Shown piece after piece: positions 16,523 through 56,774 of a stretch of 64,000 nucleotides of DNA. Each line of letters opens with the position of its first letter. Positions within the stretch are counted from its first letter, which is position 1. Both the position numbers and the translations under genes were made by a program. This DNA comes from Candidatus Kerfeldbacteria bacterium. Lineage in GTDB: Bacteria; Patescibacteriota; Patescibacteriia; UBA9570; XYC2-FULL-38-9. Location: contig JBDRKW010000006.1 of the NCBI GenBank assembly GCA_043813585.1, forward strand, positions 79,444 to 143,443, given 5' to 3'. The notes beneath the pieces are model-generated. The model ran no database searches. It was not told where the DNA came from and saw only the letters and a program-made list of their open reading frames with translations.

Positions 16523-18346
16523 TTATGCGGCTTCCTGCTCTTTTCTAATCCTAGCTAAAAACTCCTTCTTCGTTTCCTCATACGGATCCCACTCGTCTTT
16601 TAACCGTTTCATGCGCTCATTCCGTAGCTTCATCTGCCTATCCTCTTCAGCTTCATCCTTCAGACGAGCTTCTTTCAATGTTGGATCAGCCTCTTCTGCG
16701 GCCAATCGTTCCAGATGTTCTTTCGTCGTCGATTCCTTATAAGGATCCCAGTCCTTGAGTTGTTCAGCCCGCTTGATTCGTTCTTGTTCCTGTCTCTGAG
16801 CCGATGCTTCTCTCTGTTGAGCTTCAAATACTTGATATTTCAAATCATCAATCTGTTTTTCCAAATCACTCTGAACCGCATCCCGTTCGTCCCGCCGTTT
16901 GCTCATCATAAACTTGTCCGTGCCCTGCTTTTCCGCCTCGTCATAGAGCAATTGTTCCTCGGTCAAAGAACGCGCAGTTCGTTTCAACGCCTCATACGCC
17001 GTATGCAACGCTGTCCTCGAACCAAAGCCCTCGGCTTCCATTGGACGGGAAGATAATTCTTGGAAATGATCCATATCTACGCCCGCCTCTTCCAGCTGGC
17101 CTTGGACAAATTTATCTTCAGCTGTCGGCTCTGACGTTTCTGGTCCTACATATTGTGCGGCTAACTCAGCTGTTTCCGGATCTACCACTCCCTCCTGGTT
17201 CACATCAATATTATTCGCCTGCGCTACCTCATAGATTTTAAGTGCAAGCTCTCCGCACAACTGCTCGATATACCGCTGCTTGGAAATATCGCCCTCCTTA
17301 AAACCTAGGTGGTCTTCGGTCATCTTACGGATAGTGTCATACAACCGCTCCAGCGAATCCCGCGGGCCAAACGGCTCTTCTGGCAGCTGTTCAATAATTT
17401 TCCTGTATGCTTCCATGTCTGCTTTTGCTGTTAATAGCTCCTTGCTCACACGCTGCTCTAACGCGGCTTCCTCGGGTTTAGGGTAGTAATGTTCATTCCG
17501 TGCTTTTTTATATGCTGCATCTACCCGCTCCTCTTCTGCCAACTTTTTTGATAGCTTCTCCAGCCGTCTCTTTTTTAACGCAGCATCGTATTCTCCGGGA
17601 TATGCCTCATGCTCTCTACCTAATACCTCTTTCTTCTGATATCTTCTAGCTGCCTCATCCTGCCGCTTTGCATATTCACGTTGCCGATCCAACCCCTCTG
17701 CAAAAGACTCCATCGCTTTTTCCCACCGTGCATCCTCTGAAGCTTTTCGAGCGCGCTCCTCCCGGTCCTTCTCAATGGCCTGCTCCAACGGCAATCCCGG
17801 ATACTTGTCTGCGTATCTCCTTCGAACGGCTGCCCGCGCTTCCCGATCCAACTTTGCTTGCCGTTCCTCTTCTCTCCGTTCCAGCCATCTCTCATGATCT
17901 TCCTTTGACTGCCTGCGTTTTTCAGCATCACGCCTTCCCCGCTCGATATTCTCATCCGTAAACGCCTGCCCCTGCCGCTCTAGCTTCGCAGCTTCATACT
18001 GCTTATTCCACTCATGACCCTCTGCCCACAATCGGGTTTTTCGTTGCTCCGGTGTTTCATAATACGGCTCCTCCTCGTACGCCTCATGGGGCGCTAGTTC
18101 CCTTCTACGAGATTCAGAAAACGGATCATCATCAGAAAGATGTTCGTCTATATCATCCGGCATGTCGCCTCCCAGCTCTTGAACTCGTTTTGCAACATCC
18201 TTGTTCTCCGAAAAAACATCCTGCACACGGCCCACGAGACCATGCAAACCTGTGCGCTTTTTCTCTACAGGACTCCCCTCTTGTTCCTCCCCTTCAGCAG
18301 CCTGTTCGCGTCGTCGTCTTCGTTCGTCATCCTCAGCCATATGCAT
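16523..18346 (-). CDS. Hyper-charged (E/R/K/D-rich) coiled-coil protein of unknown function
   Basis: 607 aa with no TM and no recognisable catalytic motif. Long helical ER/EK-rich stretches. The C-terminus carries a duplicated motif (KDWDPYKESTTKEHLERL and KDEWDPYEETKKEFLARI). Confidence 0.55.
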   Translation of the reverse strand: MHMAEDDERRRRREQAAEGEEQEGSPVEKKRTGLHGLVGRVQDVFSENKDVAKRVQELGGDMPDDIDEHLSDDDPFSESRRRELAPHEAYEEEPYYETPEQRKTRLWAEGHEWNKQYEAAKLERQGQAFTDENIERGRRDAEKRRQSKEDHERWLERREEERQAKLDREARAAVRRRYADKYPGLPLEQAIEKDREERARKASEDARWEKAMESFAEGLDRQREYAKRQDEAARRYQKKEVLGREHEAYPGEYDAALKKRRLEKLSKKLAEEERVDAAYKKARNEHYYPKPEEAALEQRVSKELLTAKADMEAYRKIIEQLPEEPFGPRDSLERLYDTIRKMTEDHLGFKEGDISKQRYIEQLCGELALKIYEVAQANNIDVNQEGVVDPETAELAAQYVGPETSEPTAEDKFVQGQLEEAGVDMDHFQELSSRPMEAEGFGSRTALHTAYEALKRTARSLTEEQLLYDEAEKQGTDKFMMSKRRDERDAVQSDLEKQIDDLKYQVFEAQQREASAQRQEQERIKRAEQLKDWDPYKESTTKEHLERLAAEEADPTLKEARLKDEAEEDRQMKLRNERMKRLKDEWDPYEETKKEFLARIRKEQEAA

Positions 18347-20457: not shown

Positions 20458-21063
20458 ATGAAGGCCATCCCGCCATCAATCCAGCGGCTCGTCCGCGAAT
20501 TCAACAAGCTCCCCGGCATCGGCAGCAAGACGAGCGAACGTTTTGTATTCCATCTGCTGCGCCGGCCGAAAGAGGATATTGAATTGCTGGCCGCGAGCCT
20601 AAACACGATCAAAGAATCTATTCGGCTCTGCCGCGACTGTTTTACCTATACGGAAGACGAAATTTGTTCGGTTTGCAGCGACACGGGACGCGACCGCAGC
20701 ATTGTCTGCGTTGTGGCCGAACCAAAAGACGTGATCTCAGTGGAGAAAACCGGCGAGCATAACGGCATCTACTTTGTGCTCGGCGGCCTGATCGACGCAG
20801 CCGGAGGGGTCGCGCCGGAACATCTCCGCATCAGCGACCTGATCGAGTGTATCGACCAAAACGGTATCACTGAAATCATCATCGCCACCAACCCGACAAT
20901 GGAAGGTGAAACCACCGCCCTGTTCATCGCCGAACAGCTCAAAGACAAGCCGGTAACCGTATCAAAAATCGCGCGCGGCCTGCCGGTCGGCGCAGACATA
21001 GAATTTGCCGACGAAGTCACGCTCGGCGACGCGTTGGCCGGACGCAGAAATATCAAGGAATAA
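20458..21063 (+). CDS. recR: Recombination protein RecR
   Basis: 201 aa. HhH (LPGIGSKTSERFVFHLL), C4 zinc finger (CRDCFTYTEDEICSVCSD) and Toprim domain. Confidence 0.9.
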   Translation: MKAIPPSIQRLVREFNKLPGIGSKTSERFVFHLLRRPKEDIELLAASLNTIKESIRLCRDCFTYTEDEICSVCSDTGRDRSIVCVVAEPKDVISVEKTGEHNGIYFVLGGLIDAAGGVAPEHLRISDLIECIDQNGITEIIIATNPTMEGETTALFIAEQLKDKPVTVSKIARGLPVGADIEFADEVTLGDALAGRRNIKE

Positions 21064-21081
21064 CGCTGCAGCGAAGATACG

Positions 21082-21108
21082 AAAAAAGCGCCCGACGGCG
21101 CTTCTTTT
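21082..21108. terminator. Bidirectional Rho-independent terminator between convergent recR and rplU
   Basis: AAAAAAGCGCC-CGAC-GGCGCTTCTTTT. GC stem flanked by an A-run and a T-run. Confidence 0.5.
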
Positions 21109-21120
21109 GATTCTGTCGAA

Positions 21121-21444
21121 TTACTTCGCAGCGATCTTTTCGATCTGCACTTCAGTAAACGGCTGCCGGTGCCCGTACGTGCGGCTGTAGCGCGTCTTGG
21201 CCTTGAACTTCTTGACATCGACCTTTCTCGCCCTTCCCTGCTTGAGGACCTTGGCTGTCACCTTTGCGCCTTTCACTGTCGGCGTGCCTATGGTTGCGGT
21301 TTTGCCGTCTTCCTTGCCAACGAACAGAACATCATCAAACGCAATGCTCTTGCCTTCCTCGGCATCGTTCATTTTTTCTACGCGGATCGTGTCGCCTTCA
21401 CTCACTTTATACTGCTTTCCGCCTGTTTTTATTACTGCAATCAT
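21121..21444 (-). CDS. rplU: 50S ribosomal protein L21
   Basis: 107 aa. [24 protein letters not shown] is the canonical L21 N-terminus. No rpmA follows. Confidence 0.9.
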
Positions 21445-21496
21445 GAATCTTTTTTAATAGTCGCGATCAATAGTATAGTGCTGCGGGCAAAACCTG

Positions 21497-22297
21497 TCAA
21501 GGTAAGTCGCCGTCCACAATAAGGGAGCAATACCCGGTCGTATATCCGGGGTTGGAATGCTGGATATCGGAGGAATTCCCCGTAAATACTGTATCCCAAT
21601 TGCAGGTATGTTCAGGGCAGACAATCTCGCTCATCAGGATAACCGACTGCTCCGAATCAATATGGTCCGCTTCATACGAATGGAGCACGTCATAATCAAA
21701 GTTCGTAATTGCGGCGATTGTTTCCAGGTCGTTTTGCATCGCAACAGTGCGCGATTCGTAATGCGACAGGTCCACTGATGCGACAACTGCCACTTCTCCG
21801 GATAATCGCTTTCGCAATTCAGCCGCAGTTGCGAGCAACGGGTCGTTACCTGCATCAGCGCGGATCGCAATCGGAACGACTGTGGCGTCAGGGAATATAC
21901 GCGCGATAAAGGGCAGATGAATGGTTAGGGAATGTTCATTCTGGAGGGTCCCGTCGTCGCGCGCGGTCACGCGGTCGCGGATCAGCCCGTTAATGAACTG
22001 CTCATCCGGACGCACCCCTTCAAAAGGAGCACACTGCACCGCGCTTAACTCCCCGGGGCCGGCATCCTCGTGGTCCGGGCCGATCAGCACGATCATGCTC
22101 GGGTCCGCGCGCCGGTCCAGCTCCAGCCAAAATTCTTCGATCTTTTCCGGGATAAGATCATGGTGCGGAACGATGCCGCCGATTATCCGCAGATTGGAAG
22201 CATCCGAATCTTCAGTCGTCCGGCCGCTATAAAACAGAAGCCCCGCTCCACCAAGGAGCAGGGCAAGCGCTATATACGCAACCTGTTTCGCAGCCAT
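21497..22297 (-). CDS. Memo-like protein (AmmeMemoRadiSam system protein B family) with N-terminal membrane anchor
   Basis: 266 aa. N-terminal TM helix, then Memo1-family His cluster (GGIVPHHD ... SVDLSHYES). Confidence 0.65.
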   Translation of the reverse strand: MAAKQVAYIALALLLGGAGLLFYSGRTTEDSDASNLRIIGGIVPHHDLIPEKIEEFWLELDRRADPSMIVLIGPDHEDAGPGELSAVQCAPFEGVRPDEQFINGLIRDRVTARDDGTLQNEHSLTIHLPFIARIFPDATVVPIAIRADAGNDPLLATAAELRKRLSGEVAVVASVDLSHYESRTVAMQNDLETIAAITNFDYDVLHSYEADHIDSEQSVILMSEIVCPEHTCNWDTVFTGNSSDIQHSNPGYTTGYCSLIVDGDLP

Positions 22298-22299
22298 TA

Positions 22300-25200
22300 C
22301 TATTCAATCGTTATGGTTTCTTCATTTCCAATCGTCCGCACGCTAAGCGCGTTCATCGACTGCAGCACTGGCGCTTCCGCAGTGAAGACGCCTTTGTTCA
22401 CGACGCGCACATAATAGCTGAAGGTCGTATTGCCATCCCACGCGCGGAACGACACCCGCTGCCCGTCCACCAGGTACGGGTACCGGTAAATGTCATCGTC
22501 AAACTGGTACCAGCCATATTTATCCCATGGGTTTGTAACGACGCGCATTCCTGAAGGGACGAAGTCCGTCACCTGGTACTCGCCGTCCGGCAGGCTTTCC
22601 GGTATCAATACACTCACAATCACGCGAACCAAATCGCCGTCAGTGAGCGTGTTGCTTTCAAAGGCACGGCTGACTGTCATCTCGTCGTTCAGGTTCAGCT
22701 CCTCTTCCGTTGCCGCGCGGGTATAGGTGGTGATTGCCGTCGCCGAACCGTCAATAGAATTAATCGCAAAGCTGCCGGTCGTTTCCGGAGTGAGGATCAC
22801 CCGCTCCGTCATCCCGTAGGAGAGTTCCGCAATATACGGGTCGCCCGCCACCTCGTACGAAACCGTCACCGGCGTCTGCGGCAGCACAGACATGCGCGCG
22901 TCCATAAAATTCAGCTCCGGAATGACGAGCTCTACCTCACTGGTCCAGTTGTCTTCAACATAGTTGAATAGCCGGTCTGCGCGCTCATCCTGTATTATTG
23001 CCGCGATGATCGCAGCAACCAGCGTATTCTCAAGAACCAGGTCCTGGTTATCGCCGATGTTCAGGTAGAAATAATTATCAATTTCCTCGCCATAAGCAGT
23101 CATCAGCGCATCAAACACCACTTCAGCGTCGCTGAAACTCCCAATCTCTGCAAGCGCGAGTGAAAGGTACAACCGGTCGACATCCGTAATCTGATCCGAT
23201 GCCAGCATCTGATCGATCTCGAACAACACCGGTTCGCCGACAGCAGCCAGGCCGTATAACGCAAACGAATGCCGCAGCGTGGTTTCAGTTTCATCACCAA
23301 GGATGCTGTCAAAGTATTGCGTCAACCGGATTGCATCAAACTGGTCGCCGAGCCTGCTCGCCGCTATGTGCGCGCTGAGCAGCAGATCGTCATCGCTGTA
23401 CGGAAACAGTGAAACCCCGCCGACATCCTGCGTCTGATAGAGTTCATTGCTGAATGATTCATTGCCCACTGACCGGCCAAAATACTCGCTCATCATCTCA
23501 GCAGCTATGACGCGCCCTGCGCGCCGGTCCAACCGGTCGCCAAAACGGTACAAATGCCCCTGCAGCCGCGGATAAAACTGGCCAATGTGGTTATCGGTAA
23601 ACAGGACCTCAAAACTGCGGTCAGTATCAACAGTCGGCGTCCATCCCGCGCTAGCCTGCTCCACCGTAGAAAACGGCACGGCAACATATGAAGGCAGAAC
23701 AGTGAACGTGCGAATAATCGTATCGGTATAGCCGGCGCCTTCCGCTTTAATCTTTAATGCATGGTCGCCTGCAGTCAGATTATTGAGCGGCACTTCAACG
23801 ACGCCTGATCCGTTTGTTTCCACATCCTTCTCAGACATCCCAAGCGTATCCGACGAGACGGTAACGGTGACAGGGTCACCGCCGCCAAGCTGCGTGCCGA
23901 ATGCGCGGATCTTCACTATCGGCTGGTCAGACTGCAAAAAGGTGTCGCTCATCACGGCAGTGACAAAGAACGGCTGCGTCACCGTCAGCTTGTCCGTCTC
24001 GCTGGCCGCGTATAGTCCTTCATCAACCGCATGGGTGGTAATGCGCCACGACGTGATATTGTCCGGCAGTTTGAACTCCACAACCGCGCTGCCGTTCTCG
24101 TCAGTCACAACCGATTCAAACAGCGCCTTATCCGGAAAATTTGAACGATCATCCCCCCCGCCGCCGCCTTCAGCACCAAATTCGGAAATGGGATACCGAT
24201 GCGACGAGTATGACGCATAAATGCCGGCTACCGAATCCCTGTACAGTTGGATGATGAAATTAGCCGAATAATTCGCTACAAAATCTTCGCCAGTTCCATT
24301 ACTATCATACGAATAAATCGCTTCATCAATCAGGTTAACGTTAACTGCTGTTTCTGATGCCGACCCGTCAGGACGATTGACCTGGACGAACAGGGTCACA
24401 TCGTCGCCCGGTTCATAGGTGTCCTTGTCCTGCGTCACATCTATGGTCAGTTTCCGGTCGTCTTCATTAAACGAAGCAGACGTACCGGAAGCAAACCACC
24501 CGATATTGGATTCGCTGGTCCAGTACGACCGGCCGTCGTACCATACGCCCTGCAATATGACATTTGGGATGTCCTCTTCTTCATACGTAAATGAGTAATG
24601 GGACGTATCAGTCGCTTTCGCTTCCTGGATGCCGTCGCGGGCCTGAAGGAACAGAAACCCGGTGCCGTCCGCAGCCGGAATCGCGGCATTGTCGCGGAGC
24701 ATGGTCACGGCAACCGGATCGCCCAATGAAAAATCCATCTGCTGCGTGCTGTACATGCCCTGGGAATCGGAATTGTCGAACGACAGGTGGAAAAAATTGT
24801 TATTCCATCCGTAGTCATACGCATACGACGACACATACGCTTGCGTGTCGGTCGTCCTCCCCTGGTTGTCCGTCGCGCGCGCCGTTACAGTGTAATACGA
24901 CGTGCCGTCCATCTCAAATGAATAGGCAAAGGCACCCTGGTCATCGGTCACGACATGGTCCGAGGCAATCGTCTCTGTTTTATGGTTATACTGGTACTCC
25001 GGCACAACCTTCTTTTCAAAATAATCATAGTGGGTGCCGGTCTGCTTCTTTTCATACCAATGCCGCTCTACCTGGACCGTCACCGCGTAGCCGGGCACAA
25101 CAGGACCGTAGGGATTCTCCCAGAACGAAACTTCGCCGTTGTTGAACGCAAACAGATCCAGTTCATAAAGCGTACCACTGACGCTTGCTGTTGTTGCTTC

Positions 25201-27468
25201 CGCCTCCGCATTCAATTGTATCAGTTGACCGGAATCAAACACCTGTACCCGCGCATCCGCATGGATCTCCGATTCTTCGGCAAAGGTCGGGTAAACGGAA
25301 ATCCAATCCATATACTCTTCCGAGTAGGTCTTCGTAAAGGAAGTATGACCATTCTCATCTGTGGTAAGCGTGCCGCCGCTTGTCGGATCGGTCAGCTCAA
25401 GGCCTGCCACCGGGGTTCCGTCAAAGAACGCGGCAGTCACGTCATGCGTCAGCGCGTCGCCTTTGATCACTCCGATATTCTGCGGATTGATGTCTATTCC
25501 ATACGTTGGTTTGACATAGCTCAGCACATCCACCGACTTTCTGAACAGCACGACATCGTCGATTGCAACCTGAAGCTGGTAATACCCCGGAGTTACGCCG
25601 CCAAGGTCAAACGACCCCTGAAATGTTCCATGCAGACCCAACTCCACATTCTGGCTAAAAACAGGGTCATCTTGCCATCCCTGCGTTAATTGGACGGTTG
25701 CCTGACTGACCGTATCTCCGCCCCGCGGAGAGACTAAGCCCCAATAATTCAATATATCATCCGGTTTATAGAACGGCTGGTCAGGATAGATATAGGACCA
25801 ATACGGGAGCGAGCGGACGCCTTCATTGTAGAATCCCTGCGCATTGCCTTCGAGCGGGACATATAGCGTGCTCCCGTTTGAAGTAATTTCCAAGAAATGA
25901 GCGCCAAGCTGCGCCAAATCCAAGAGCGATTCAGGCGTGTCTGTCTGCAGGACGCCGTCTTCTCCCGTGGTGCCGAGCACCGTACCGTCCGAAAGCGCGA
26001 CTTGTGCGCCGGAAAGCGGCTGGTCTGTTGAGGCATCATGCGCCCATACCACAGTTGTCGATTCTGATACCGTTGAATAAGCGTTGATATCCGTCACATT
26101 CAACAGCGCCTGCAGCGTGGTATCATTCTGGCCTGCGACTTCAAACAGGTAGAACCCGGCCGGCAGCGTTTCAGGCGCTTCAATGGAATACTGCCAGTAA
26201 TTCTCAATGTCCTTCAGCGGCACCTCGGCTGTGGAGCGCAGTGAAAGGGTATTGGTGTCCACATGCCACTTGCTGCGGTCGTAGACAGTCCATGACGGAC
26301 GGTCGAAATACGATTCCAAAGCAGCGCGGTAATCGTCCTCGGTATTAAACTCATAAACAGTGATTGCTGCGTTTTCAACTTTGTCCATGTTGTAGCCGGA
26401 AACCAACAGCGTCGCCTTGTGCTCGGTTGACGTCTCGATAGTCGCCTGGTGCAGGTCGCTGATGCCCGGCGTGTCTGATGGACGGCCTTCGCCCTCTTTT
26501 GACGCGGTCTCAAACTGGAACAGGACATTCTCTCCAAGCGTTTCGCCGGTTGCCGGCAGGCTCACATCAGCGCCGATCGTTACCGTATAGAGCGTCTCTT
26601 TTTCCAGCGGCTGGTCTGGGATAAATGCAACGGTCTTCCGGTGCGTCTCAAAGCGGCCGCTCACATTCGGTTCGATCGTAAAATTTTCTTGTGCATTACC
26701 GAATCCGACATGGCTGAATGTCACCTCAATGCCGGTATCAATCGGAACGGTCACCGCCTCATCCCGCGGCAGCGTCGACACAACCTGGAATTCTTCCTGC
26801 ACCTGGTAGGCCCATGAAAAATTCCGGCGCGTCACCGTACCATCCTCGCCTTCCACCGCAACAGCGAGCTCCGCATTGACCACTGTGCCCGGTTCAAGCG
26901 GTTCTTTTGGTTTGATCGTATACACATCATCACCAGTCGCTTCTACGGCATAAGCAACGTTTGGTGAGAAGCTCAAAGATTCTTTGATTTTATCTGCCGA
27001 TGTTTCAATAGTCGCTGTCAGTTGAAACCCGCTGTCCGGTGCAACGCCTGAATCATCTTCTGTCAACGCAGTCAACTCAAACGCTCCATCCAGGTCTTGC
27101 ATGGCAAGAGGCTCATCAATAATAAGAGGCCCCGTATCGCCAAGCCCGCCGTCGCGAATCTGGAATTGCTGATACGCAAAAATACCCACTGAAATAACAA
27201 CAATTGCCAGTACGCCGATCCCGACCGGTGCAAGTGCCGGAAGCCGGAACCATGAAACCTTGCCTGACCGCGGCTCCTTTGCGGTCGCTGTTTTTTTCGT
27301 CGCCATAGATGCTTCGTTAAAGGCCGTCTCGCGCAGCTCCGAAAATAAACGATCCTTGAACTGCTGTGACGGTTTATTAGACGGATAGGAAGAAGCTGAA
27401 AGCAGCTTCTCTACCCCTCTATACGAAGCCTCCTTGTCCGGATTACGTTTTTTGCTTGAATTAGCCAT
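22300..27468 (-). CDS. Giant single-pass membrane protein with alpha-2-macroglobulin-family extracytoplasmic region (no thioester); putative anti-sigma partner of the upstream ECF sigma
   Basis: 1722 aa. A ~75-aa cytoplasmic N-terminus, a TM helix at ~aa 76-100 (LPALAPVGIGVLAIVVISVGIFAY), then a huge external region. Residues ~1107-1180 match the A2M MG7 signature (RSNFPDKALF...LPDNITSWRITTHAV...TQPFFVTAV; compare human A2M FPETWIW...VPDTITEW...FQPFFVEL). No CGEQ thioester motif. The start sits 1 nt after the ECF sigma stop. Confidence 0.6.
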   Translation of the reverse strand: MANSSKKRNPDKEASYRGVEKLLSASSYPSNKPSQQFKDRLFSELRETAFNEASMATKKTATAKEPRSGKVSWFRLPALAPVGIGVLAIVVISVGIFAYQQFQIRDGGLGDTGPLIIDEPLAMQDLDGAFELTALTEDDSGVAPDSGFQLTATIETSADKIKESLSFSPNVAYAVEATGDDVYTIKPKEPLEPGTVVNAELAVAVEGEDGTVTRRNFSWAYQVQEEFQVVSTLPRDEAVTVPIDTGIEVTFSHVGFGNAQENFTIEPNVSGRFETHRKTVAFIPDQPLEKETLYTVTIGADVSLPATGETLGENVLFQFETASKEGEGRPSDTPGISDLHQATIETSTEHKATLLVSGYNMDKVENAAITVYEFNTEDDYRAALESYFDRPSWTVYDRSKWHVDTNTLSLRSTAEVPLKDIENYWQYSIEAPETLPAGFYLFEVAGQNDTTLQALLNVTDINAYSTVSESTTVVWAHDASTDQPLSGAQVALSDGTVLGTTGEDGVLQTDTPESLLDLAQLGAHFLEITSNGSTLYVPLEGNAQGFYNEGVRSLPYWSYIYPDQPFYKPDDILNYWGLVSPRGGDTVSQATVQLTQGWQDDPVFSQNVELGLHGTFQGSFDLGGVTPGYYQLQVAIDDVVLFRKSVDVLSYVKPTYGIDINPQNIGVIKGDALTHDVTAAFFDGTPVAGLELTDPTSGGTLTTDENGHTSFTKTYSEEYMDWISVYPTFAEESEIHADARVQVFDSGQLIQLNAEAEATTASVSGTLYELDLFAFNNGEVSFWENPYGPVVPGYAVTVQVERHWYEKKQTGTHYDYFEKKVVPEYQYNHKTETIASDHVVTDDQGAFAYSFEMDGTSYYTVTARATDNQGRTTDTQAYVSSYAYDYGWNNNFFHLSFDNSDSQGMYSTQQMDFSLGDPVAVTMLRDNAAIPAADGTGFLFLQARDGIQEAKATDTSHYSFTYEEEDIPNVILQGVWYDGRSYWTSESNIGWFASGTSASFNEDDRKLTIDVTQDKDTYEPGDDVTLFVQVNRPDGSASETAVNVNLIDEAIYSYDSNGTGEDFVANYSANFIIQLYRDSVAGIYASYSSHRYPISEFGAEGGGGGDDRSNFPDKALFESVVTDENGSAVVEFKLPDNITSWRITTHAVDEGLYAASETDKLTVTQPFFVTAVMSDTFLQSDQPIVKIRAFGTQLGGGDPVTVTVSSDTLGMSEKDVETNGSGVVEVPLNNLTAGDHALKIKAEGAGYTDTIIRTFTVLPSYVAVPFSTVEQASAGWTPTVDTDRSFEVLFTDNHIGQFYPRLQGHLYRFGDRLDRRAGRVIAAEMMSEYFGRSVGNESFSNELYQTQDVGGVSLFPYSDDDLLLSAHIAASRLGDQFDAIRLTQYFDSILGDETETTLRHSFALYGLAAVGEPVLFEIDQMLASDQITDVDRLYLSLALAEIGSFSDAEVVFDALMTAYGEEIDNYFYLNIGDNQDLVLENTLVAAIIAAIIQDERADRLFNYVEDNWTSEVELVIPELNFMDARMSVLPQTPVTVSYEVAGDPYIAELSYGMTERVILTPETTGSFAINSIDGSATAITTYTRAATEEELNLNDEMTVSRAFESNTLTDGDLVRVIVSVLIPESLPDGEYQVTDFVPSGMRVVTNPWDKYGWYQFDDDIYRYPYLVDGQRVSFRAWDGNTTFSYYVRVVNKGVFTAEAPVLQSMNALSVRTIGNEETITIE

Positions 27469-27469
27469 A

Positions 27470-28039
27470 TTATGATTGTTTTTTTTCTATGGAGACCTTC
27501 ATTTTTTTAAGCGCCCGATGCGAGATTACGCCGATATTATTCGGCGTCATCCCCATGACCTCTGCAATTTCTTCATGGGAAAAGCCTTCAATATATTTCA
27601 GCTGAACGACCTTTTGTTGTTTTTCCGGCAGTTCATTAATGCACGCTTGCATAAACTCGCGCTCATCGCTGTTGAGAACGATTTCCTCCGGCGTTCGCGT
27701 TTGGCTGGCAAGGTCCTGGATGGAATCTATGTCTACGACAGCCGGCTTGTTCGGATTACGCGTTACGCGATAATGGTCGATAATTGTATTATTCGCGATC
27801 CGATAGAGCCATGTACGAAACGAGGCCTTTGATGAATCAAACGCCTCAAGGTTCGTGAATACCTTCCTGAATATTTCAGATACTAAATCTTCACTTGTTT
27901 CCGGATGGCCAATCCGCTTCATTACAAAACCGTAGATCTGGTCTATGTACGCGTTATACAGTTGTGCAAACGCCATTTCATCGCTGCACGCCCGTTCAGC
28001 CAACGCATTATGATCCTCCTTGTCAGCTATTGATATCAT
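27470..28039 (-). CDS. ECF-type RNA polymerase sigma-70 factor
   Basis: 189 aa. Region 2 (FRTWLYRIANNTIIDHYR) and region 4 HTH (IAEVMGMTPNNIGVISHRALKKMK). Confidence 0.8.
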   Translation of the reverse strand: MISIADKEDHNALAERACSDEMAFAQLYNAYIDQIYGFVMKRIGHPETSEDLVSEIFRKVFTNLEAFDSSKASFRTWLYRIANNTIIDHYRVTRNPNKPAVVDIDSIQDLASQTRTPEEIVLNSDEREFMQACINELPEKQQKVVQLKYIEGFSHEEIAEVMGMTPNNIGVISHRALKKMKVSIEKKQS

Positions 28040-28093
28040 ACGAAAAATACCCCTCTATTTTACACGTAAACGGCAATTTCCTCAATGTTAGCG

Positions 28094-28576
28094 TTATTTT
28101 GCTGCTGCCGGCGTGAAGACAATGCGATCGCCCGCTTTTATGTCATACACCGCAGCCTCGCCAGCATTGATTTCCAGTACTTTGTCAACCGGAACTTTGG
28201 GCTGGTACCGCGTCAGTTCGGACATGGACTTCCCCGGTTCGGGCAGGACATCCGCAGTGACTTCCATAACAGCATCACCGCTAATCCATATGAAATCCAA
28301 CGGGATATGCGTATCATACATCCAAAACTGATGGTAGGCGGAATTTCCAAACACGAAGAGCATGCCGTGCCTCATGGCAAGCGATGTACGCCCTGACAAG
28401 CCTTTGTTGCGCGCAGCAGCTGTATCGGCGACTTCAATGTCGAACGAGGTCCCGTTAATGATCAGTTCGTTAAACTGGATTTTTGATTCGGACATCGTGA
28501 AATACCAGATCGGTACGGCTATAACTGCGCCGATAACGATGATTGCCAGTACTCCGGTTAGAACACGTAACTTCAT
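28094..28576 (-). CDS. DUF192-family protein with N-terminal membrane anchor
   Basis: 160 aa. TM helix followed by a DUF192-like core (GMLFVF...FWMYDTHIPLDFIWI). Confidence 0.5.
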   Translation of the reverse strand: MKLRVLTGVLAIIVIGAVIAVPIWYFTMSESKIQFNELIINGTSFDIEVADTAAARNKGLSGRTSLAMRHGMLFVFGNSAYHQFWMYDTHIPLDFIWISGDAVMEVTADVLPEPGKSMSELTRYQPKVPVDKVLEINAGEAAVYDIKAGDRIVFTPAAAK

Positions 28577-29655
28577 TGTTGTTTTTTTCTTTTGGACAAT
28601 ACAACGATAGACGAAGCCAGAATAATCATTGTTACCACAATCAATGCCAGCACCATGACTTTTGCCGTTGATTGTAAAAACAGTGAACTAATGCCGAAGA
28701 TAAGCGTAAACGCGTAAAGCATCAGGACCGTTTCGCGGTGGCTTAAGCCGATATCGATAAGACGAAGGTGCAGGTGCTTGCGGTCCGCTTCAAACGGCGA
28801 TCGTCGTTCCAGGAAAAGGCGGCGGATGATCACCCAGATGACATCCATGATCGGGATGCCGAGAATAATAATAGCAGTGGCAATCTTACCGCCGGAAATA
28901 ATGGCAAGCACACCAAGGATAAACCCGGCAAACAGCGACCCTGATTCGCCCAGAAATATCTTGGCCGGATGCCAGTTCAGGAACAGGAACCCAAGAAACG
29001 CCGCGCCTGCGAGCGCTGCAAGATATGCCGTCTCCGGCTGATACACCATCTTCGTCATGGAAAGCACGGCAATAATACCCGAACCAATCACGGCTACTCC
29101 TGAAACAAGACCGTCCAGTCCGTCCAGGAATTTTGTCGTATACATCGTGCCCATAAGCCAGACAATGGTGAATGCATCAGCGAGCAGCGTAAGCTTGTAC
29201 GGCAGGCCGTTAACAGTAAACAGTTCAAACGAATATTGATCGAGCTGAATAATACCCCCGATTGGATTGGTAATATAATCAATTCCGATGCCGGACACGA
29301 TGACGATCAGAGCAGAAATGACCGGAAAGACAACCTGTACTTTTGGCGACAAATCAAATTTATCATCAAGTACACCGCCAACCAGCAAGACTAGCGCACC
29401 GGAAATCACGCCAAATAAATGCTTTGGCAGCATATACCCCCCGACCAATGACGGCCACGCAATAAAAATACCGACAATAAACGCGGTGATTACTGCAGCG
29501 CCCCCGATCAGCGGCGTCGGCCGCTTGTGGACCTTGCGCGGATCCTTCGGCACATCAATAAAACCGAACTTGAGCGCCAGCTTGCGCGCCGCAACTGAAA
29601 AAAGCATCGACAACAGCATGGTTGCGGTAATAATGATGAGCGTTGTCGTGCTCAT
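28573..29655 (-). CDS. Polyprenyl-phosphate N-acetylhexosamine-1-phosphate transferase (MraY/WecA GT4 superfamily)
   Basis: 360 aa with about 10 TM segments. DDxxD-like motif (LDDKFDLSP), FLGESGSLFAGF, and a His-containing loop. MraY versus WecA/TagO cannot be resolved by eye. Confidence 0.65.
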   Translation of the reverse strand: MSTTTLIIITATMLLSMLFSVAARKLALKFGFIDVPKDPRKVHKRPTPLIGGAAVITAFIVGIFIAWPSLVGGYMLPKHLFGVISGALVLLVGGVLDDKFDLSPKVQVVFPVISALIVIVSGIGIDYITNPIGGIIQLDQYSFELFTVNGLPYKLTLLADAFTIVWLMGTMYTTKFLDGLDGLVSGVAVIGSGIIAVLSMTKMVYQPETAYLAALAGAAFLGFLFLNWHPAKIFLGESGSLFAGFILGVLAIISGGKIATAIIILGIPIMDVIWVIIRRLFLERRSPFEADRKHLHLRLIDIGLSHRETVLMLYAFTLIFGISSLFLQSTAKVMVLALIVVTMIILASSIVVLSKRKKQQ

Positions 29656-42610: not shown

Positions 42611-43801
42611 TTATGCGATTATCTTAGTTACAACTCCTGAAGCAACCGTCTTTCCGCCCTCACGGACAGCAAAGCGCTGCTTCTCTTCCAGAGCAACCGG
42701 CTTGCCGAGTTTCACCTTGAAACTGACGGTATCGCCAGGCATGACCATCTCTGTGCCTTCAGGCAATTCAACTTCTCCGGTCACGTCCGTGGTGCGGATA
42801 TAGAACTGCGGCTTGTAACCCTTGGTAAACGGTGTTGCACGGCCGCCTTCATCCTTTGACAGGACATAGACCTCTGCATCAAATTCCGTGTGCGGAGTAA
42901 CCGATCCCGGTTTCGCAAGCACCTGACCGCGCTCAACCTCTTCCTTCTTGGTGCCGCGCAGCAAAATTCCGGCGTTATCGCCAGCCATACCTTCGTCCAA
43001 CTGCTTGTTGAACATCTCAATGCCTGTTACGACCGATTTCTGCGTTTCACCCAGACCCACGATCTCAACATCTTCATTAACACCCACTTTTCCGCGTTCA
43101 ATACGGCCGGTCACCACTGTGCCGCGGCCTTCAATTGAGAAGATATCTTCAATCGGCATCAGGAAATCCTGGTCAACGTCACGTACCGGTTGCGGAATGT
43201 ATTCGTCCAGGGTTTTTAGCAGTTCGATGATCGGCTTTGCGGCCTCTTCGTCAGTCGGATTCTCCAGTGCTTTCAGTGCAGAACCGCGGATAATAGGCGT
43301 TTCATCGCCCGGGTATTCATATTTGTTCAACAGGTCGCGGATTTCAACTTCAACCAGCGTCAAAAGCTCTTCGTCTTCAACCTGGTCAACTTTATTCAGG
43401 AAAACCACAACTGAAGGGACGCCGACCTGGCGAGCGAGCAGGATATGCTCTTTTGTCTGGGGCATTGGGCCGTCTGTTGCAGAAACAACAAGAATAGCGC
43501 CATCCATCTGAGCAGCGCCTGTGATCATGTTCTTCACATAATCTGCGTGGCCCGGGCAGTCAACGTGAGCATAATGACGTTTGTCCGTCTCGTACTCAAC
43601 GTGTGATGTATTAATAGTGATACCGCGCTCCTTTTCTTCCGGAGCGTTGTCGATGTCCTCAAACTTCTTGTCCTGTGCGGTTTTACCCTGTGCACCGGAA
43701 ACAGCGAGGATCGCAGCCGTCAACGTGGTTTTACCGTGGTCAACGTGACCAATGGTGCCGACATTGACGTGCGGTTTTGATCGATCGAACTTGTCAGCCA
43801 T
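42611..43801 (-). CDS. tuf: Elongation factor Tu
   Basis: 396 aa. [22 protein letters not shown]. Confidence 0.95.
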
Positions 43802-44042: not shown

Positions 44043-45059
44043 TTAATATTCATCTTCACCAATAAACCAATCAAGATTCCTAATATGACTCGCCAACATA
44101 TCCGTATTCCCATGTTGTAGCAAGCCAATATATGATTGTAATACTGCAGGCAATGGGCACTGAAAAAAACGACGAAACATGCGTTGCTTTGTCCTTGTGC
44201 GCAATACCTTATGGTCCGAAAAATGCACCCAGCCCAGGAAGTCTATGCCTGAAGCTAATGAATGGATGTGCACTTTTTTTGAATGAAGCGACAAGCTTAG
44301 TTGACGATCCAGGAACAAACGTATTTGCGGAATCTGATGCACCAGCCATTCACGGTCATCAGACATCACAACAAAATCATCGGCATAGCGTATATAGGAC
44401 TTCGCTTTCAGCTGATGCTTTGCGAACTGGTCGAACTCATTCATATAGACATTCACAAACAGCTGCGAAGTCAGATTGCCAAGCGGTAGGCCAACCCTGA
44501 GAGATGAAAGATAAAAACTGGAAATAACACCCTCAAGAAGCCGCATAATATCCTCGTCAGGGATGTATTGCCGTAAAATCCCTATAAGAATGCCATGGTC
44601 GATAGATGCAAAAAACTTCCGAATATCACACTGCAGTACCCAGCAGGTTCGGGTGTTATTCCTGCTGGCTTTATATGCCATGGAACGAAACCGATCATTC
44701 GCTGCATGTGTTCCTTTGTTATTCCTGCATGAAAAAGAATCCGCAATAAATGTGCGGTCAAAAAAAGGATACAACTTGCGGTATATTGCGTGGTGCAATA
44801 ATCGATCACGGACGTCAGCCTTGTGGATGTGCCGGGGTTTCGGATCTGTGATATGGAAGCTATAATACCTGCCATGCCTGTAACTAAAGGATGCCAGCTC
44901 GTCATGCAGCTGAAGTATATTTGCCATCAGGTGACGTGAAAACAACTGCACATCCGGCTTTCCGCGTTTTCCGCGCACAAATTCTTTCCAGGCGGCTAAC
45001 AAATTTTCCACCGAAATAATTTCTTCGTAACTATGGCTGAATTGAATTCTCATAACCAA
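44043..45059 (-). CDS. Diversity-generating retroelement reverse transcriptase
   Basis: 338 aa. RT motifs include YADDFVV (motif 5) and the DGR-diagnostic LPLGNLTSQ (LGxxxSQ in place of the group II/retron QGxxxSP). The N-terminus AWKEFVRGKRGKPDV is typical of DGR RTs. An adjacent TR/VR pair is present. Confidence 0.85.
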   Translation of the reverse strand: MVMRIQFSHSYEEIISVENLLAAWKEFVRGKRGKPDVQLFSRHLMANILQLHDELASFSYRHGRYYSFHITDPKPRHIHKADVRDRLLHHAIYRKLYPFFDRTFIADSFSCRNNKGTHAANDRFRSMAYKASRNNTRTCWVLQCDIRKFFASIDHGILIGILRQYIPDEDIMRLLEGVISSFYLSSLRVGLPLGNLTSQLFVNVYMNEFDQFAKHQLKAKSYIRYADDFVVMSDDREWLVHQIPQIRLFLDRQLSLSLHSKKVHIHSLASGIDFLGWVHFSDHKVLRTRTKQRMFRRFFQCPLPAVLQSYIGLLQHGNTDMLASHIRNLDWFIGEDEY

Positions 45060-45117
45060 TCAGGACAATACCCCCCCCCAACAGCGTGGGGGCGATGATA
45101 TTCCAATTCTTGTTACG

Positions 45118-45465
45118 ATGCGGAGTGCATACGCTGCATGGCACGAATCGCTGAAGCACTTGCCGAAGGTATCGCGGTATTCGCTGGGAAAGAAAGTCGA
45201 CATATTGTTCACGGATACGATTGAAATAATACTTTACGCTGCGTATGCCAGGCGCGCTGACAAACTGGCGATTCTCCAAAAAGCCTGCGTAAAACTTGAT
45301 GCCCTGCAATTCTTCCTCCAACTCGCATGGGAACTGAACGTACTTGATAATAGGAAATATGGAGCTATTTCTACACCGCTAGCAGAAGTAGGAAAAATGC
45401 TCGGTGGCTGGAAAAAACAGTTTACGAAAGATGCCCCCAATAAACCGGGAGCACCTCGTGCATGA
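45118..45465 (+). CDS. avd: DGR accessory variability determinant (Avd-like four-helix-bundle protein)
   Basis: 115 aa, basic and helical. The C-terminus LDALQFFLQLAWELNV...PLAEVGKMLGGWKKQ parallels Bordetella-phage Avd (LAMLRFWLRFLAG...IAEVGRILGSWIARV). Oriented opposite to the RT, target and TR. Confidence 0.65.
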   Translation: MRSAYAAWHESLKHLPKVSRYSLGKKVDILFTDTIEIILYAAYARRADKLAILQKACVKLDALQFFLQLAWELNVLDNRKYGAISTPLAEVGKMLGGWKKQFTKDAPNKPGAPRA

Positions 45466-45471
45466 AGAGTG

Positions 45472-45596
45472 TTGCGGGGGACGCGAACCAGGAAGCGCCA
45501 GTTGTCGTTCCAGTCGTTCTCGAACCAGTTGAGGTTGAGGTTGCGCTCGTTGGCGTTCTCGTTCAGGTACGGCACGTTGCGGTTGCCGTTGGCATT
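45472..45596 (-). repeat. DGR template repeat (TR)
   Basis: 125 bp aligns without gaps to the VR at 45962-46086. All 15 mismatches fall on TR sense-strand adenines (34 A in total), mostly within AAC codons. The first 30 nt are identical to VR. Confidence 0.85.
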
Positions 45597-45949: not shown

Positions 45950-45954
45950 AAGCG

Positions 45955-46638
45955 CTAGTTTTTGCGGGGGACGCGAACCAGGAAGCGCCAGAAGTCGTAC
46001 CAGTCGTCCTCGAACCAGTAGAGGTAGAGGTCGCGCTCGCGGGCGCTCTCGTACAGGCACGGCACGTTGCGGTGGCCGTGGGCATCCGACCAGGGCACGC
46101 ACAGAATGGCGACAGGGAAGTCACGCTGCACGTCCGGGTAGTCCCGGGCGAACACGAGTCCATCGCCGAAGCTCGGACGCTGGTACCCGCTCTCCTTCAC
46201 GGCTGCCAGCACGTCCCCGGTGGACATGTAGCGGCCGAAGTGCACGACCGCCAAATCGTACTCTCCCTCTGCCGGGTCGTCCGGGGAGTTCTGCAGCGGA
46301 AACCGATCCTCGGTGATGTCCGAGTTGGTCCGGTCGAACTTCCCCGCCTTCAGTGCCTCGATCCAGCGCCAGCTAAGGCTCCAGGTCACCGGGAACGAGT
46401 CGCTCACCGTAAGCTTGACCGGCTTCAACTCGACCTTCGAGGCGCTGTCCGGCCGGCCCGCCTCCACGACCAGGTCAGCGAACCGACCGATCAGGGGACG
46501 GCCCTCCGGCGTTGCCAGGCGGTAGATCTCCTCGTCCATACCGCCGCGCTCCTTCACCGCGTTGACCAACTCGGTCCACACAGTGGTCAGAAGACCAGCT
46601 CCGGACACAATCGGGGACACATCTTTCCTCTTCGCCAT
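45955..46638 (-). CDS. DGR variable (target) protein with C-terminal FGE/C-type-lectin-like variable region
   Basis: 227 aa. The last ~42 codons form the VR (HGHRNVPCLYESARERDLYLYWFEDDWYDFWRFLVRVPRKN). The matching TR translation is NGNRNVPYLNENANERNLNLNWFENDWNDNWRFLVRVPRN. The protein ends with an FRxxR-like motif. Confidence 0.8.
   Translation of the reverse strand: MAKRKDVSPIVSGAGLLTTVWTELVNAVKERGGMDEEIYRLATPEGRPLIGRFADLVVEAGRPDSASKVELKPVKLTVSDSFPVTWSLSWRWIEALKAGKFDRTNSDITEDRFPLQNSPDDPAEGEYDLAVVHFGRYMSTGDVLAAVKESGYQRPSFGDGLVFARDYPDVQRDFPVAILCVPWSDAHGHRNVPCLYESARERDLYLYWFEDDWYDFWRFLVRVPRKN
45962..46086 (-). repeat. DGR variable repeat (VR) at the 3' end of the target gene
   Basis: See TR. 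Differences from TR occur only at TR adenines (A to T/G/C). The 30-nt identical GC-rich 3' block is IMH-like. Confidence 0.85.
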
Positions 46639-46883: not shown

Positions 46884-49019
46884 TTACTCTTCGTCTTCGT
46901 CGTCCGCTACAACGCCGCCGCGATCCTCAACGATCTTATTTGATACGTTCTTCGGCACCTGGCTGTATTTCTCGAATTCCATTGAGAAACTCGCCCGTCC
47001 CTGCGTGATAGAACGTAATTGCGTTGCGTAGCCGAACATTTCGGACAGCGGAACGGTCGCTTCAACAACCTTCATATTGCCGCGATCGGTCATTTCGCCG
47101 ATCTGTCCGCGCTTTGAGTTCAGGTCGCCCATCACATCGCCCATGAAATCTTCAGGCGTCACCACCTCAACACTCATGACCGGCTCGAGCAGCACAGGTC
47201 CCGCTCTGCGTGCGGCGGTTTTGAACGCCTTGGAACCGGCTATTTTGAACGCCGCTTCAGACGAGTCAACGTCATGGTACGAACCGTCAATCAGACGAAC
47301 CTTGATATCCAGCAGAGGATATCCGGCAACAATGCCGCGGTCCATGGCTTCCCTTACGCCTTTCTCAATAGGCGCAATAAATTCGCGCGGAATGGATCCG
47401 CCTTTAGTCTGATCCACAAACTCGAAGTGTTTCTTCTCTTCCTCATCTTCCGGCTGTACATACGGCTCGACAATAAGCACGCAATGGCCGTACTGTCCGC
47501 GGCCGCCGGTCTGCTTGACGTACTTCTCTTCGCCTTCAGCTTCCTTAGTAATAGTTTCCTTGTACGCCACCTGCGGCTGGCCGATATTCGCCTCGACATT
47601 GAACTCGCGCTTCATGCGGTCGATGATGATGTCCAGATGCAGCTCGCCCATGCCGGACAATACCGTCTGGTTCGTCTCTTCATCGGATTTGACGCGCAGG
47701 GTAGGATCCTCTTCCACCAGGCGCTGGATCGCAATGCCCATCTTTTCCTGGTCTGCCTTGGTTTTCGGCTCAACCGCAATGGAAATGACCGGTTCCGGGA
47801 AGGTAATCTGTTCCAGAACAATTGGATGCTCCGGATCGCACAGCGTGCTGCCGGTAATGGTTTCTTTCAGGCCGACTGCAGCGGCAATGTCTCCGGCGCA
47901 GATCTCTTCAATTTCTTCGCGGGAATTTGCATGCATGCGGACCAGGCGCGAAATGCGTTCCTTGTTGCCAGTGGTCATGTTCAGCACGTACGAACCTGAT
48001 TTTAGCACGCCCGAATAGACGCGGATAAAAATAAGCTTTCCGACATACGGGTCAGTCGCCACTTTAAAGGCCAACGCTGCCAGCGGCTGATCATCATCAG
48101 TGGTGCGCTCGATTTCTTTCTCCAGGTCGTCTGCGTCATGCCCGATGGTCGGAGGAAGGTCAAGCGGCGACGGCAGGTAGGCCGTCACTGCATCCAGCAT
48201 GTACTGGACGCCTTTATTTTTTAGAGCCGAACCGCACAGCACCGGAACGATATCGTTCGCGATTGTTGCCACACGCAGCACCCTTATGATATCTGCTTCG
48301 CTGATCTCCTTGCCTTCGAGGTAATCATTCATCAGTGCTTCGTCATTTTCAACCACTGCCTCAACCAGTTCCGCGCGATATTTCTCAACTTTGTCTTTCA
48401 TGTCCTCGGGCACGTCGACTTCCTCAAAATCAGTTCCCATTTCATCCTTATAAATGACCGCTTTGCGACGGATGATGTCGATGATGCCCTGGAAGGTGTC
48501 AGCCGCGCCAATCGGCAGCTGAATCGGGAACGCACGCTTGGTCAGGCGGTTATGGATTGAATCCATGTCCTTGTAGAAGTCCGCGCCAGTGCGGTCCATC
48601 TTATTGATGAACGCCAGCCGCGGTACGCTGTACTTGTCTGCCTGGTGCCATACGGTCTCGGACTGCGGTTCAACGCCGGCAACGCCGTCAAATATCACAA
48701 CGCCGCCGTCCAGAACGCGGAGCGAGCGCTCCACCTCTACCGTGAAGTCAACGTGGCCCGGGGTATCGATGATATTGATCTTGGTGTCTTTCCAGAACGC
48801 CGTTGTCGCGGCAGCAGTAATCGTAATGCCGCGCTCCTGTTCCTGTTCCATCCAGTCCATGGTGGCTTCGCCCTCATGCACTTCGCCGATCTTATGCGTG
48901 CGGCCGGTATAAAACAGGACGCGCTCGGTGACCGTCGTCTTTCCCGCGTCAATATGGGCGATAATGCCGATATTGCGAGTTTTTTCCAATGGATAGTGTA
49001 CTTTTTCTTCTTCTGACAT
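46884..49019 (-). CDS. fusA: Elongation factor G
   Basis: 711 aa. [22 protein letters not shown], and domains II-V are conserved. Confidence 0.95.
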
Positions 49020-56724: not shown

Positions 56725-56774
56725 CCTCCGTATAATTATGCCTGCAGTATACAAAAAAAGAGCCGAGCCGTAAA

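Follow-up and report, generated by a model that had tools for sequence, protein, structure and literature searches.

A giant thioester-less α2-macroglobulin-like membrane protein encoded next to an extracytoplasmic function sigma factor: a candidate anti-sigma sensor in Patescibacteria

The RsiW–SigW and RsiV–SigV pairs of Bacillus subtilis and the RseA–RpoE pair of Escherichia coli exemplify membrane-bound anti-sigma factors of extracytoplasmic function (ECF) systems that are freed by regulated proteolysis. The RsgI–SigI systems of cellulolytic clostridia and the FecR-type systems have anti-sigma factors with large modular extracellular sensors, in which extracytoplasmic autoproteolysis primes signaling. 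To our knowledge, extracellular signal perception by ECF systems is understood for no more than a handful of sensor domains. RsiV in particular has been described as a membrane-bound ECF anti-sigma factor released by proteolysis (PMC4183432). Bacterial α2-macroglobulins (A2Ms), in turn, have been described as two types, both from Gram-negative organisms: Type I proteins carry a thioester, are lipoproteins, and are paired with PBP1c, whereas Type II proteins, represented by MagD, lack the thioester, and belong to the mag operon, MagD showing that bait cleavage and non-covalent trapping can work without it (PMC5764988). Here, we analyze a 64-kb stretch of a Candidatus Kerfeldbacteria (Patescibacteria) genome (64,000 nucleotides of contig JBDRKW010000006.1, hereafter the window) in which an ECF sigma factor gene is followed almost immediately by the gene for a 1722-aa A2M-like membrane protein, a candidate anti-sigma partner of that sigma factor.

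The A2M-like gene is the second of three genes that form an operon on the minus strand, in the following order:

27470..28039, minus strand: ECF (group 4) sigma factor, a 189-aa open reading frame (ORF) with a possible true start at TTG 28003
22300..27468, minus strand: 1722-aa single-pass membrane protein (tail, transmembrane (TM) helix, thioester-less A2M-like ectodomain), the candidate anti-sigma/sensor
21497..22297, minus strand: Memo-like protein (similar to AmmeMemoRadiSam protein B) that bears a signal anchor at its N terminus; its gene lies 2 nt downstream of the A2M-like gene

The sigma gene ends in a TAA at 27472-27470, which is followed by a single base and then by the ATG at 27468 of the 1722-aa ORF, in agreement with the one-nucleotide spacing reported in a first-pass annotation of this DNA. 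Core genes flank the locus (ribosomal proteins, SecY, Adk, Map, RuvX, RecR, and DnaB), and the region is best explained as an autoregulated operon in the core chromosome of this genome. A mis-called or chimeric ORF, brought next to a sigma gene by chance, would be an artefactual way to arrive at the same picture. We regard this as extremely improbable: an identical 1722-aa protein occurs in a public Kerfeldbacteria metagenome-assembled genome, full-length homologues exist at 43-51% identity, the gene order recurs in dozens of independent assemblies, and the flanking genes are core genes.

Pfam finds Sigma70_r2 (2.2e-18) and Sigma70_r4_2 (9.1e-17) as the sole domains of the sigma factor, with Sigma70_ECF matching at 8.4e-7. 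The protein passes the TIGR02937 sigma70-ECF model (127 bits, cutoff 42.9) and reaches no equivalog cutoff, the best being the BldN-family model TIGR02952 (148 bits versus a required 206). Possession of regions 2 and 4 alone in a protein of about 170-200 aa defines ECF group 4, and this is the composition of the window sigma factor. An in-frame TTG at 28003 is preceded by GGAGG at 28019-28015 (minus strand). Because the −10 element of the upstream promoter-like motif P1, described below, overlaps the annotated ATG (28039), we consider this TTG a candidate start, and the true sigma factor may therefore be about 177 aa long.

The 1722-aa protein can be divided into the following parts, all encoded on the minus strand:

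27235..27468: cytoplasmic tail, aa 1-78, two predicted helices and then a K-rich linker (alignments, AlphaFold)
27151..27234: transmembrane helix, aa 79-106 (hydropathy aa 79-97; AlphaFold helix aa 82-106)
26506..26796: Big_5 Ig-like domain, aa 225-321 (Pfam 4.1e-11), the N-terminal hallmark of the family
24310..24636: A2M bait-region domain (A2M_BRD, PF07703), aa 945-1053 (4.1e-5, above gathering score)
23911..24123: A2M domain (PF00207), aa 1116-1186 (Pfam 1.2e-10, above gathering score)
22891..23586: all-helical thioester-domain-like region without a thioester, aa 1295-1526 (11 AlphaFold helices, pLDDT >90)
22306..22869: C-terminal β-sandwich domains, aa 1534-1721, resembling the A2M C-terminal macroglobulin (MG)/receptor-binding domain

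Hydropathy reveals one hydrophobic segment in the entire protein, and because K/R-rich sequence precedes the TM helix and acidic sequence follows it, we assign an N-in/C-out topology. The first-pass annotation had proposed a cytoplasmic N terminus of ~75 aa, one TM helix, and an ectodomain of ~1600 aa; this layout is upheld, with the tail extending to ~78 aa, and fits best with a very large type-II membrane protein that the cell exposes on its surface. The Big_5 domain is found in nearly all homologues, and an MG2 match at aa 559-636 falls below the Pfam gathering score. The A2M signature that had been placed at residues ~1107-1180 also coincides with the profile result: FPDKALF lies at aa 1111-1117 and the other quoted motifs at aa 1134-1148 and 1165-1172, within or at the Pfam A2M match.

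A profile built from 37 full-length homologues and searched against the PDB gave E. coli ECAM/YfhM (4e-30) and Salmonella A2M (1e-27) as its best matches, followed by mosquito TEP1, human A2M, CD109, and complement C3/C4/C5. The aligned stretches are the MG region, the bait/A2M region, and the C-terminal 300 residues, and they include ECAM residues 1305-1609. AlphaFold models were built with family alignments in two pieces, aa 1-900 (predicted local distance difference test, pLDDT, 82.5) and aa 900-1722 (pLDDT 84.9; predicted template modeling score, pTM, 0.70), and ECAM is the top Foldseek match of both (4.2e-24 and 5.5e-37, respectively). The C-terminal model passes through β-sandwiches, a disordered loop, the A2M domain, β domains, an 11-helix domain, and the C-terminal β-sandwiches, so that the helical domain occupies the place of a thioester domain; the Pfam TED_complement model does not match the window protein. 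Pfam, the PDB profile search, and both AlphaFold halves, which are the kinds of checks that the first-pass annotation had proposed, all point to the A2M/C3 superfamily, and by these three lines the ectodomain is a true member of it.

The annotation had also noted the lack of a CGEQ thioester. The protein has in fact no cysteine at all, and with it neither CGEQ nor CLEQ, which makes both a thioester and a lipobox impossible. The pattern C[GLA]EQ occurs in 0 of the 37 homologues and in 0 of 122 family representatives. CXEQ is also absent from accepted superfamily members such as MagD and C5. Judging from the models, the A2M machinery has been preserved, the thioester excepted.

To find relatives, we scanned one genome per species with a pattern made from a 10-sequence alignment of the A2M-domain segment following the bait loop. 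The scan identified 415 genomes with a relative, from which 80 loci were analyzed (81 with the window). An ECF sigma gene lies directly upstream on the same strand in 20 of these loci and in the window, and every one of these 21 sigma-linked genes encodes a protein whose first TM helix begins between aa 57 and 110. By comparison, in each of the 47 other 5′-complete genes, a number that leaves out one locus truncated at a contig end, the first TM helix is at aa ≤47 or none was found. A protein search yielded five more tail-bearing proteins, every one with an overlapping upstream sigma gene and four with a downstream Memo-like gene; in a prospective test, the sigma gene was present for four of five fresh tail-bearing representatives. 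Altogether, a sigma gene lies directly upstream in 30 of 32 tail-bearing relatives (window included), versus 0 of 47 tail-less ones. The combination of a sigma-adjacent gene with single-pass N-in topology that we see in the window, at a 1-nt gap, is the same in 30 loci.

The tails of Patescibacteria have in common a motif, (A/P)xxxF(K/Q)xxLxxx(I/L), that follows a short helix, and residues F37 and L41 are conserved in at least 90% of the aligned sequences. In two members of the family, L047 (Bacillota) and P0021 (Limnocylindrales), the tail scores above the gathering threshold for zf-HC2, and the upstream sigma gene overlaps by 4 nt in each. Besides these, locus L088 (P0049) belongs to a separate A2M lineage: its protein has MG2, MG3, BRD, and A2M domains together with eight predicted TM segments, a separate downstream gene carries TED_complement and A2M_recep, and the protein has a zf-HC2 tail and an ECF sigma gene overlapping by 4 nt. 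From its domain content, P0049 appears to be an independent A2M/anti-sigma fusion. The profile of class I anti-sigma domains (ASDI/ZAS, zf-HC2), which are N-terminal helical bundles of about 80 aa that often contain HxxxCxxC, is thus matched by L047, P0021, and P0049 and not by the window tail. We found no other conserved gene fit to be a separate anti-sigma factor in the 81 loci, and none among the larger ORFs of the window; the alternative that the annotation had set against its own proposal, a distinct anti-sigma gene beside an orthologous sigma gene, is not seen as a conserved arrangement.

We infer from this co-occurrence that the tail probably binds the adjoining sigma factor, and we think it quite probable that it is the anti-sigma partner; if so, the tail most likely works as a minimal anti-sigma domain of a non-canonical kind and keeps the sigma factor sequestered. 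Three observations count against this assignment. The tail helices (aa 17-26 and 33-57) are modeled with low confidence (pLDDT about 45-69). The window tail and 21 other tails gave no anti-sigma match against Pfam and PDB beyond chance level, and a tail profile found nothing at E≤1 in a database of 5.8 billion proteins, a kind of search for which the tail is too short and divergent. Finally, two tail-bearing proteins lack an adjoining sigma gene, namely P0009 and P0122, the latter with a different tail type. Of the anti-sigma wiring proposed in the first-pass annotation, then, the conserved partnership with the sigma gene stands (30 of 32 versus 0 of 47, and zf-HC2 in relatives), whereas an anti-sigma match of the window tail itself does not.

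The missing match and the two tail-bearing relatives without a neighboring sigma gene would also fit co-transcription without sequestration, in which the sigma factor is the dedicated transcription factor of a surface A2M/Memo module and is controlled elsewhere, for example by its own transcription alone, while the tail serves localization, stability, or another partner. The promoter motifs described below suit this reading as well, in that they show no more than a probable sigma dependence of the operon. We nevertheless judge co-transcription alone to be unlikely. All 30 sigma-linked genes encode a tail and none of the 47 unlinked ones does, a pattern not easily accounted for by a tail that has no connection with the sigma factor; bona fide zf-HC2 domains occur at the same position in L047, P0021, and P0049; and the stop/start spacing or overlap of 1-4 nt favors stoichiometric co-synthesis.

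Three further elements, again on the minus strand, concern how the operon may be transcribed:

28038..28064: P1, a motif resembling ECF-type promoters (TGTAAA-N16-CGTAT) that precedes the annotated start of the sigma gene and overlaps it
27422..27447: P2, a copy of the motif (CGTAAT-N16-CGTA) in the tail-coding region, codons R8-N9 to S15-Y16
27304..27306: in-frame internal ATG (Met55), ~20 aa before the TM helix, conserved

Autoregulatory promoters of ECF sigma factors have an AAC-like −35 element and a CGT −10 element. P1 is the sole match in the 64-kb window to TGTAA[AT]-N15-17-CGT[AT][AT]. Across sigma-linked loci, a conserved motif, (T/C)GTAAT-N16-CGT(T/A), occurs both upstream of the sigma gene and within the tail-coding region. 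A slightly looser form ending in CGT[AT] has 33 matches over all loci (2.1 Mb of strand), and 14 of them directly precede a sigma gene. The distance between the start of the motif and the sigma ATG is exactly 33 or 34 nt in 10 loci, and this fixed position implies leaderless or near-leaderless transcripts. With a TTG 28003 start, P1 of the window would lie at −61, similar to the −55 of its closest relative, L001. The motif, with GTAAT as its −35 element, escaped a strict search for AAC-N15-19-CGT in front of the sigma genes, and a generic sigma-70 promoter/terminator scan of positions 21000-29000 gave chance-level results.

P2 is found at homologous codons, [R/C]-N-x5-[S/A/T]-[L/Y], in 12 of 21 sigma-linked loci (the window, L001, L003, L005, L013, L015, L018, L023, L028, L031, L055, and L061), against a background of 0.03 per 330 nt. 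Its spacer is 16 nt in every case, its Arg codon is always CGT (usage 0.22), and its Ser/Ala/Thr codon is always NCG (usage 0.26). The fixed spacer and fixed synonymous sites point to selection on the DNA itself rather than on the protein alone. Nine of the 12 loci have an in-frame ATG 115-121 nt past the P2 −10 element, and L028 and L055 have one at 133 nt; in L061 the nearest in-frame ATG is further from the motif. A Met just before the TM helix is also present in the fresh family representatives. From their sequence and placement, P1 and P2 are candidate sigma-dependent promoters that are probably recognized by this sigma factor. We hypothesize that P1 gives rise to the sigma factor and the full-length anti-sigma/A2M protein, and P2 to a tail-less isoform together with the Memo-like protein, so that effector output from P2 would escape titration by the anti-sigma factor.

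The Memo-like protein matches Pfam Memo (3.2e-18) and TIGR04336 (4.4e-24). The neighborhood survey in relatives that had been suggested at first pass showed, besides the upstream sigma genes, that 48 of 71 testable loci, window included, have a Memo-like homologue as the next gene downstream, in the same orientation and at a median gap of −3 nt. Nearly all of the Memo-like homologues among those listed have an N-terminal hydrophobic segment or lipobox, and for this reason we place the protein outside the cytoplasm. The Memo-like gene is a conserved third gene of the module, a point that goes beyond the first-pass annotation; the two promoter motifs, the size and type of the family, and the Hint domain at the bait position in relatives, described below, are likewise new. 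No pairing of Memo-like or AmmeMemoRadiSam proteins with macroglobulins was found in the searched literature. Apart from the sigma and Memo-like genes, no neighbor family is kept in more than 5 of the 81 loci.

A phmmer search of 1.84 billion cluster representatives (clusters at 50% identity) returned 909 clusters at E≤1e-30, making this a large family and, as far as we could find, an uncharacterized one. Its hosts are Patescibacteria, Bacillota, Chloroflexota, and Actinomycetota, with Pseudobacteroides cellulosolvens, Acetivibrio alkalicellulosi, and Brassicibacter mesophilus among the cultured Bacillota. In a rough neighbor-joining tree, sigma-linked members fall mostly within two Patescibacteria clades, inside which L006 and L060 have lost both tail and sigma gene; two isolated sigma-linked cases from Bacillota appear among unlinked clostridial members.

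The segment of the ectodomain that would be exposed to proteases lies just before the A2M domain:

24130..24204, minus strand: flexible Gly-rich loop at the bait position, aa 1089-1113 (FGAEGGGGGDDRSNF), pLDDT <50 in the model

In the profile alignment (domain 3), this loop aligns to the ECAM stretch just before the ECAM A2M domain, which we take to be the ECAM bait region. In relatives, a domain of ~135 aa is inserted exactly in the loop; 22 of the 80 loci and 40 of the 122 family representatives have it, with the consensus GAE(K/G)GG|CF...TPEH...VYN...HT(Y/F)xA(N/D)GxYVHN|xKGG (vertical bars marking the insertion boundaries). Pfam identifies the insertion as a Hint domain (PT-HINT 5.9e-21, plus Hint, Vint, and Intein_splicing). 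The loci that carry it are L004-L007, L013-L015, L018, L020, L023, L028, L031, L051, L053-L055, L057, L060, L061, L063, L067, and L071, of which 13 of 22 are sigma-linked, and it is also present in P0019 and P0020; the window protein itself has no Hint insertion. The position after HN is mostly occupied by D, E, N, or Q in place of Cys/Ser/Thr, which, by established intein chemistry, argues against splicing and for N- and/or C-terminal cleavage via a Gly–Cys thioester. The Hint sequences in relatives thus suggest autoprocessing, not splicing, and the insertion of such a domain exactly at the bait-position loop suggests that chain scission there is central to family function. As a separate observation, a secreted protein with an HxGxD motif (SHEGTDI), which by eye resembles M23 Gly-Gly endopeptidases, is encoded at L006:3295-4347, directly upstream of a tail-less, Hint-containing A2M-like gene; this single case is suggestive given the poly-Gly loop.

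We lean toward reading the locus as a sigma/anti-sigma pair that detects attack by proteases through an A2M-like decoy on the cell surface. In such a system, the ectodomain would be both decoy and sensor for extracellular proteases. A cut in the exposed Gly-rich loop (aa ~1089-1113) would bring about an A2M-type conformational change and destabilize the protein, after which the membrane stub and tail would be degraded, as in regulated intramembrane proteolysis. The freed sigma factor would then transcribe its own operon from P1 and probably also from the internal P2, and P2 could supply a tail-less A2M-like isoform together with its Memo-like partner. The specific notion that protease cleavage of the ectodomain is the signal is the more tentative component, and we rate it as less likely than not. 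Several findings speak against a role in reporting proteolysis. The loop is ~1000 residues from the membrane, far from the stub that its cleavage would have to expose to a site-2 protease, and no M50/RseP-type protease was detected among the larger ORFs of the 64-kb window. The loop sequence, GAEGGGG, is conserved across phyla although classical A2M baits are hypervariable, so the loop may be the target of a specific enzyme or may escape cleavage altogether. In addition, most family members have no sigma gene, implying that the primary role of the ectodomain is not signaling and that signaling is an add-on to a surface function in which the Memo-like partner shares.

The conserved loop would also suit a genuine anti-sigma factor with an ectodomain that responds to a signal different from proteolysis, for example to touching the surface of a host or partner cell, to a fragment of the cell wall, or to a specific cognate enzyme that works on the Gly-rich loop. 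Patescibacteria are often epibionts. The N-terminal half of the protein is a string of Ig/MG-like domains of the adhesin kind, a Memo-like partner that is both conserved and extracytoplasmic hints at a dedicated biochemical step in place of generic trapping, and the M23-like protein of L006, seen once and by eye, would supply an enzyme of the required sort. We consider a different signal improbable nonetheless, since the A2M machinery (bait-region, A2M, thioester-like helical, and C-terminal domains) is kept and modeled with high confidence, the family is also common in Clostridia and Chloroflexota that are not epibionts, and thioester-less MagD traps protease after bait cleavage (PMC5764988).

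Read jointly, our observations could describe a third type of bacterial A2M, found in monoderm and candidate phyla radiation (CPR) bacteria, TM-anchored, thioester-less, and Memo-paired, about a third of whose members have been turned into a device that converts protease attack into transcription, with a P2-derived tail-less isoform and Hint chemistry in a sister clade. Surface proteolytic attack would be passed on to transcription through the fused minimal anti-sigma tail; P2, hidden in the anti-sigma coding sequence, would yield a tail-less effector from the conserved internal Met; and the non-splicing Hint of the sister clade could self-cleave or make a reactive thioester, replacing the lost CXEQ chemistry. 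This composite is speculative and rather unlikely to be right in all its parts. If its signaling part is correct, the cell may switch genes on under surface protease attack, and the A2M-type ectodomain, already built to detect attack by proteases, would provide a direct input for an ECF pathway. Patescibacteria have few regulators, and the operon would then be one of their few regulatory circuits with both a plausible input and a plausible output. The promoter motif within the anti-sigma coding sequence suggests a way to uncouple effector output from anti-sigma synthesis. The family also extends bacterial A2Ms to monoderm and candidate-phyla bacteria, with another anchor, a Memo-like partner, and, in many members, a Hint domain at the bait position.

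Other features of the window lie outside the operon. A DUF192 gene (28094-28576, minus strand; 1.3e-26) is directly upstream of the sigma gene, separated from it by a 54-nt gap, and is not kept in other loci. For three large minus-strand ORFs of 607, 539, and 715 aa (16523-18346, 55474-57093, and 57208-59355), Pfam gave no match at E≤1e-3 or 1e-4, and the region from 57 to 59.6 kb has the highest GC content of the window (0.56-0.60), with long ORFs on both strands. An apparent diversity-generating retroelement is located at 44043-46638 (minus strand), between tuf (42611..43801) and fusA (46884..49019). It includes a reverse-transcriptase ORF (44043..45059; RVT_1 3e-20) and a 124-nt repeat with a template copy at 45472-45595 and a variable copy at 45962-46085 that are 89% identical. 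The variable copy lies at the 3′ end of a 227-aa ORF (45955..46638), and all mismatches between the copies are adenine in the template copy and C/G/T in the variable copy.

Of the described A2Ms, those of Type I (ECAM/YfhM and Salmonella A2M; PDB 5a42, 4ziq, 4u48) are the best profile and structural matches over both halves of the ectodomain. ECAM, however, is a lipoprotein with a CLEQ thioester and a PBP1c pairing, and the window protein has none of the three. This is consistent with the contrast to lipoprotein, PBP1c-paired A2Ms drawn in the first-pass annotation: the window protein is TM-anchored and lacks Cys, and PBP1c is not a conserved neighbor. Type II proteins (MagD/YfaS; PMC5764988, PMC3735191) likewise have an A2M fold without CXEQ and associate with the inner membrane. 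MagD, though, is a periplasmic Gram-negative protein encoded in a six-gene magABCDEF operon and held at the membrane by MagB, whereas the window family has its own TM anchor, monoderm/CPR hosts, an N-terminal Big_5 domain, a Memo-like partner, and, in about a third of cases, an ECF sigma gene. Proteins annotated as YfaS gave weak matches (1e-10 to 1e-14 over 7-15% of the query). The label "MagD-type" used at first pass is accurate as to the missing thioester and inaccurate otherwise, as the gene does not sit in a mag operon and the closest structures are those of Type I proteins; with the missing thioester as the sole shared feature, we rejected this class. Because its anchor, neighbors, and host phyla differ, the family is neither Type I nor Type II.

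Among anti-sigma systems, the closest parallels are those of RsiW, RsiV, and RseA. As in these, a sigma gene is followed by a coupled gene for a single-pass N-in/C-out protein, the system seems to be autoregulated through an ECF-type promoter, and the cytoplasmic N terminus is the inhibitory module, putatively so here and with zf-HC2 in L047, P0021, and P0049. The window tail differs in having about 55 structured residues in two predicted helices, no HxxxCxxC, and no class I match, and the ectodomain in being A2M-like and about 1600 aa long, compared with roughly 100-200 aa. A smaller version of the same gene order occurs at L067:1875-3953 (minus strand), where a divergently transcribed ECF sigma gene precedes its own single-pass DUF5667 protein. 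The N terminus of that protein (LKELQKIQPSKRWKQEARQEILAKI) resembles the tail motif of the A2M-like proteins, its ectodomain is a small DUF5667 and not A2M-like, and the neighboring A2M-like gene has a short signal anchor and nothing longer. In the searched literature we found no mention of DUF5667 and no relevant paper joining anti-sigma factors with A2M, the few co-occurrences of the terms being off-topic; the ECF re-classification paper does not mention CPR groups.

The RsgI–SigI and FecR-type systems offer a parallel for large extracellular sensors. SigI is not an ECF sigma factor, and the RsgI and FecR sensors are carbohydrate-binding or TonB-box-interacting modules, not A2M. The Hint domain of relatives would offer a self-cleavage analogous to theirs, whereas the window protein itself contains no autoprocessing domain. 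Viewed against all of these, the system is of a known kind, that of an ECF sigma/anti-sigma pair, and what is new is its candidate sensor, itself a new variant of bacterial A2M.

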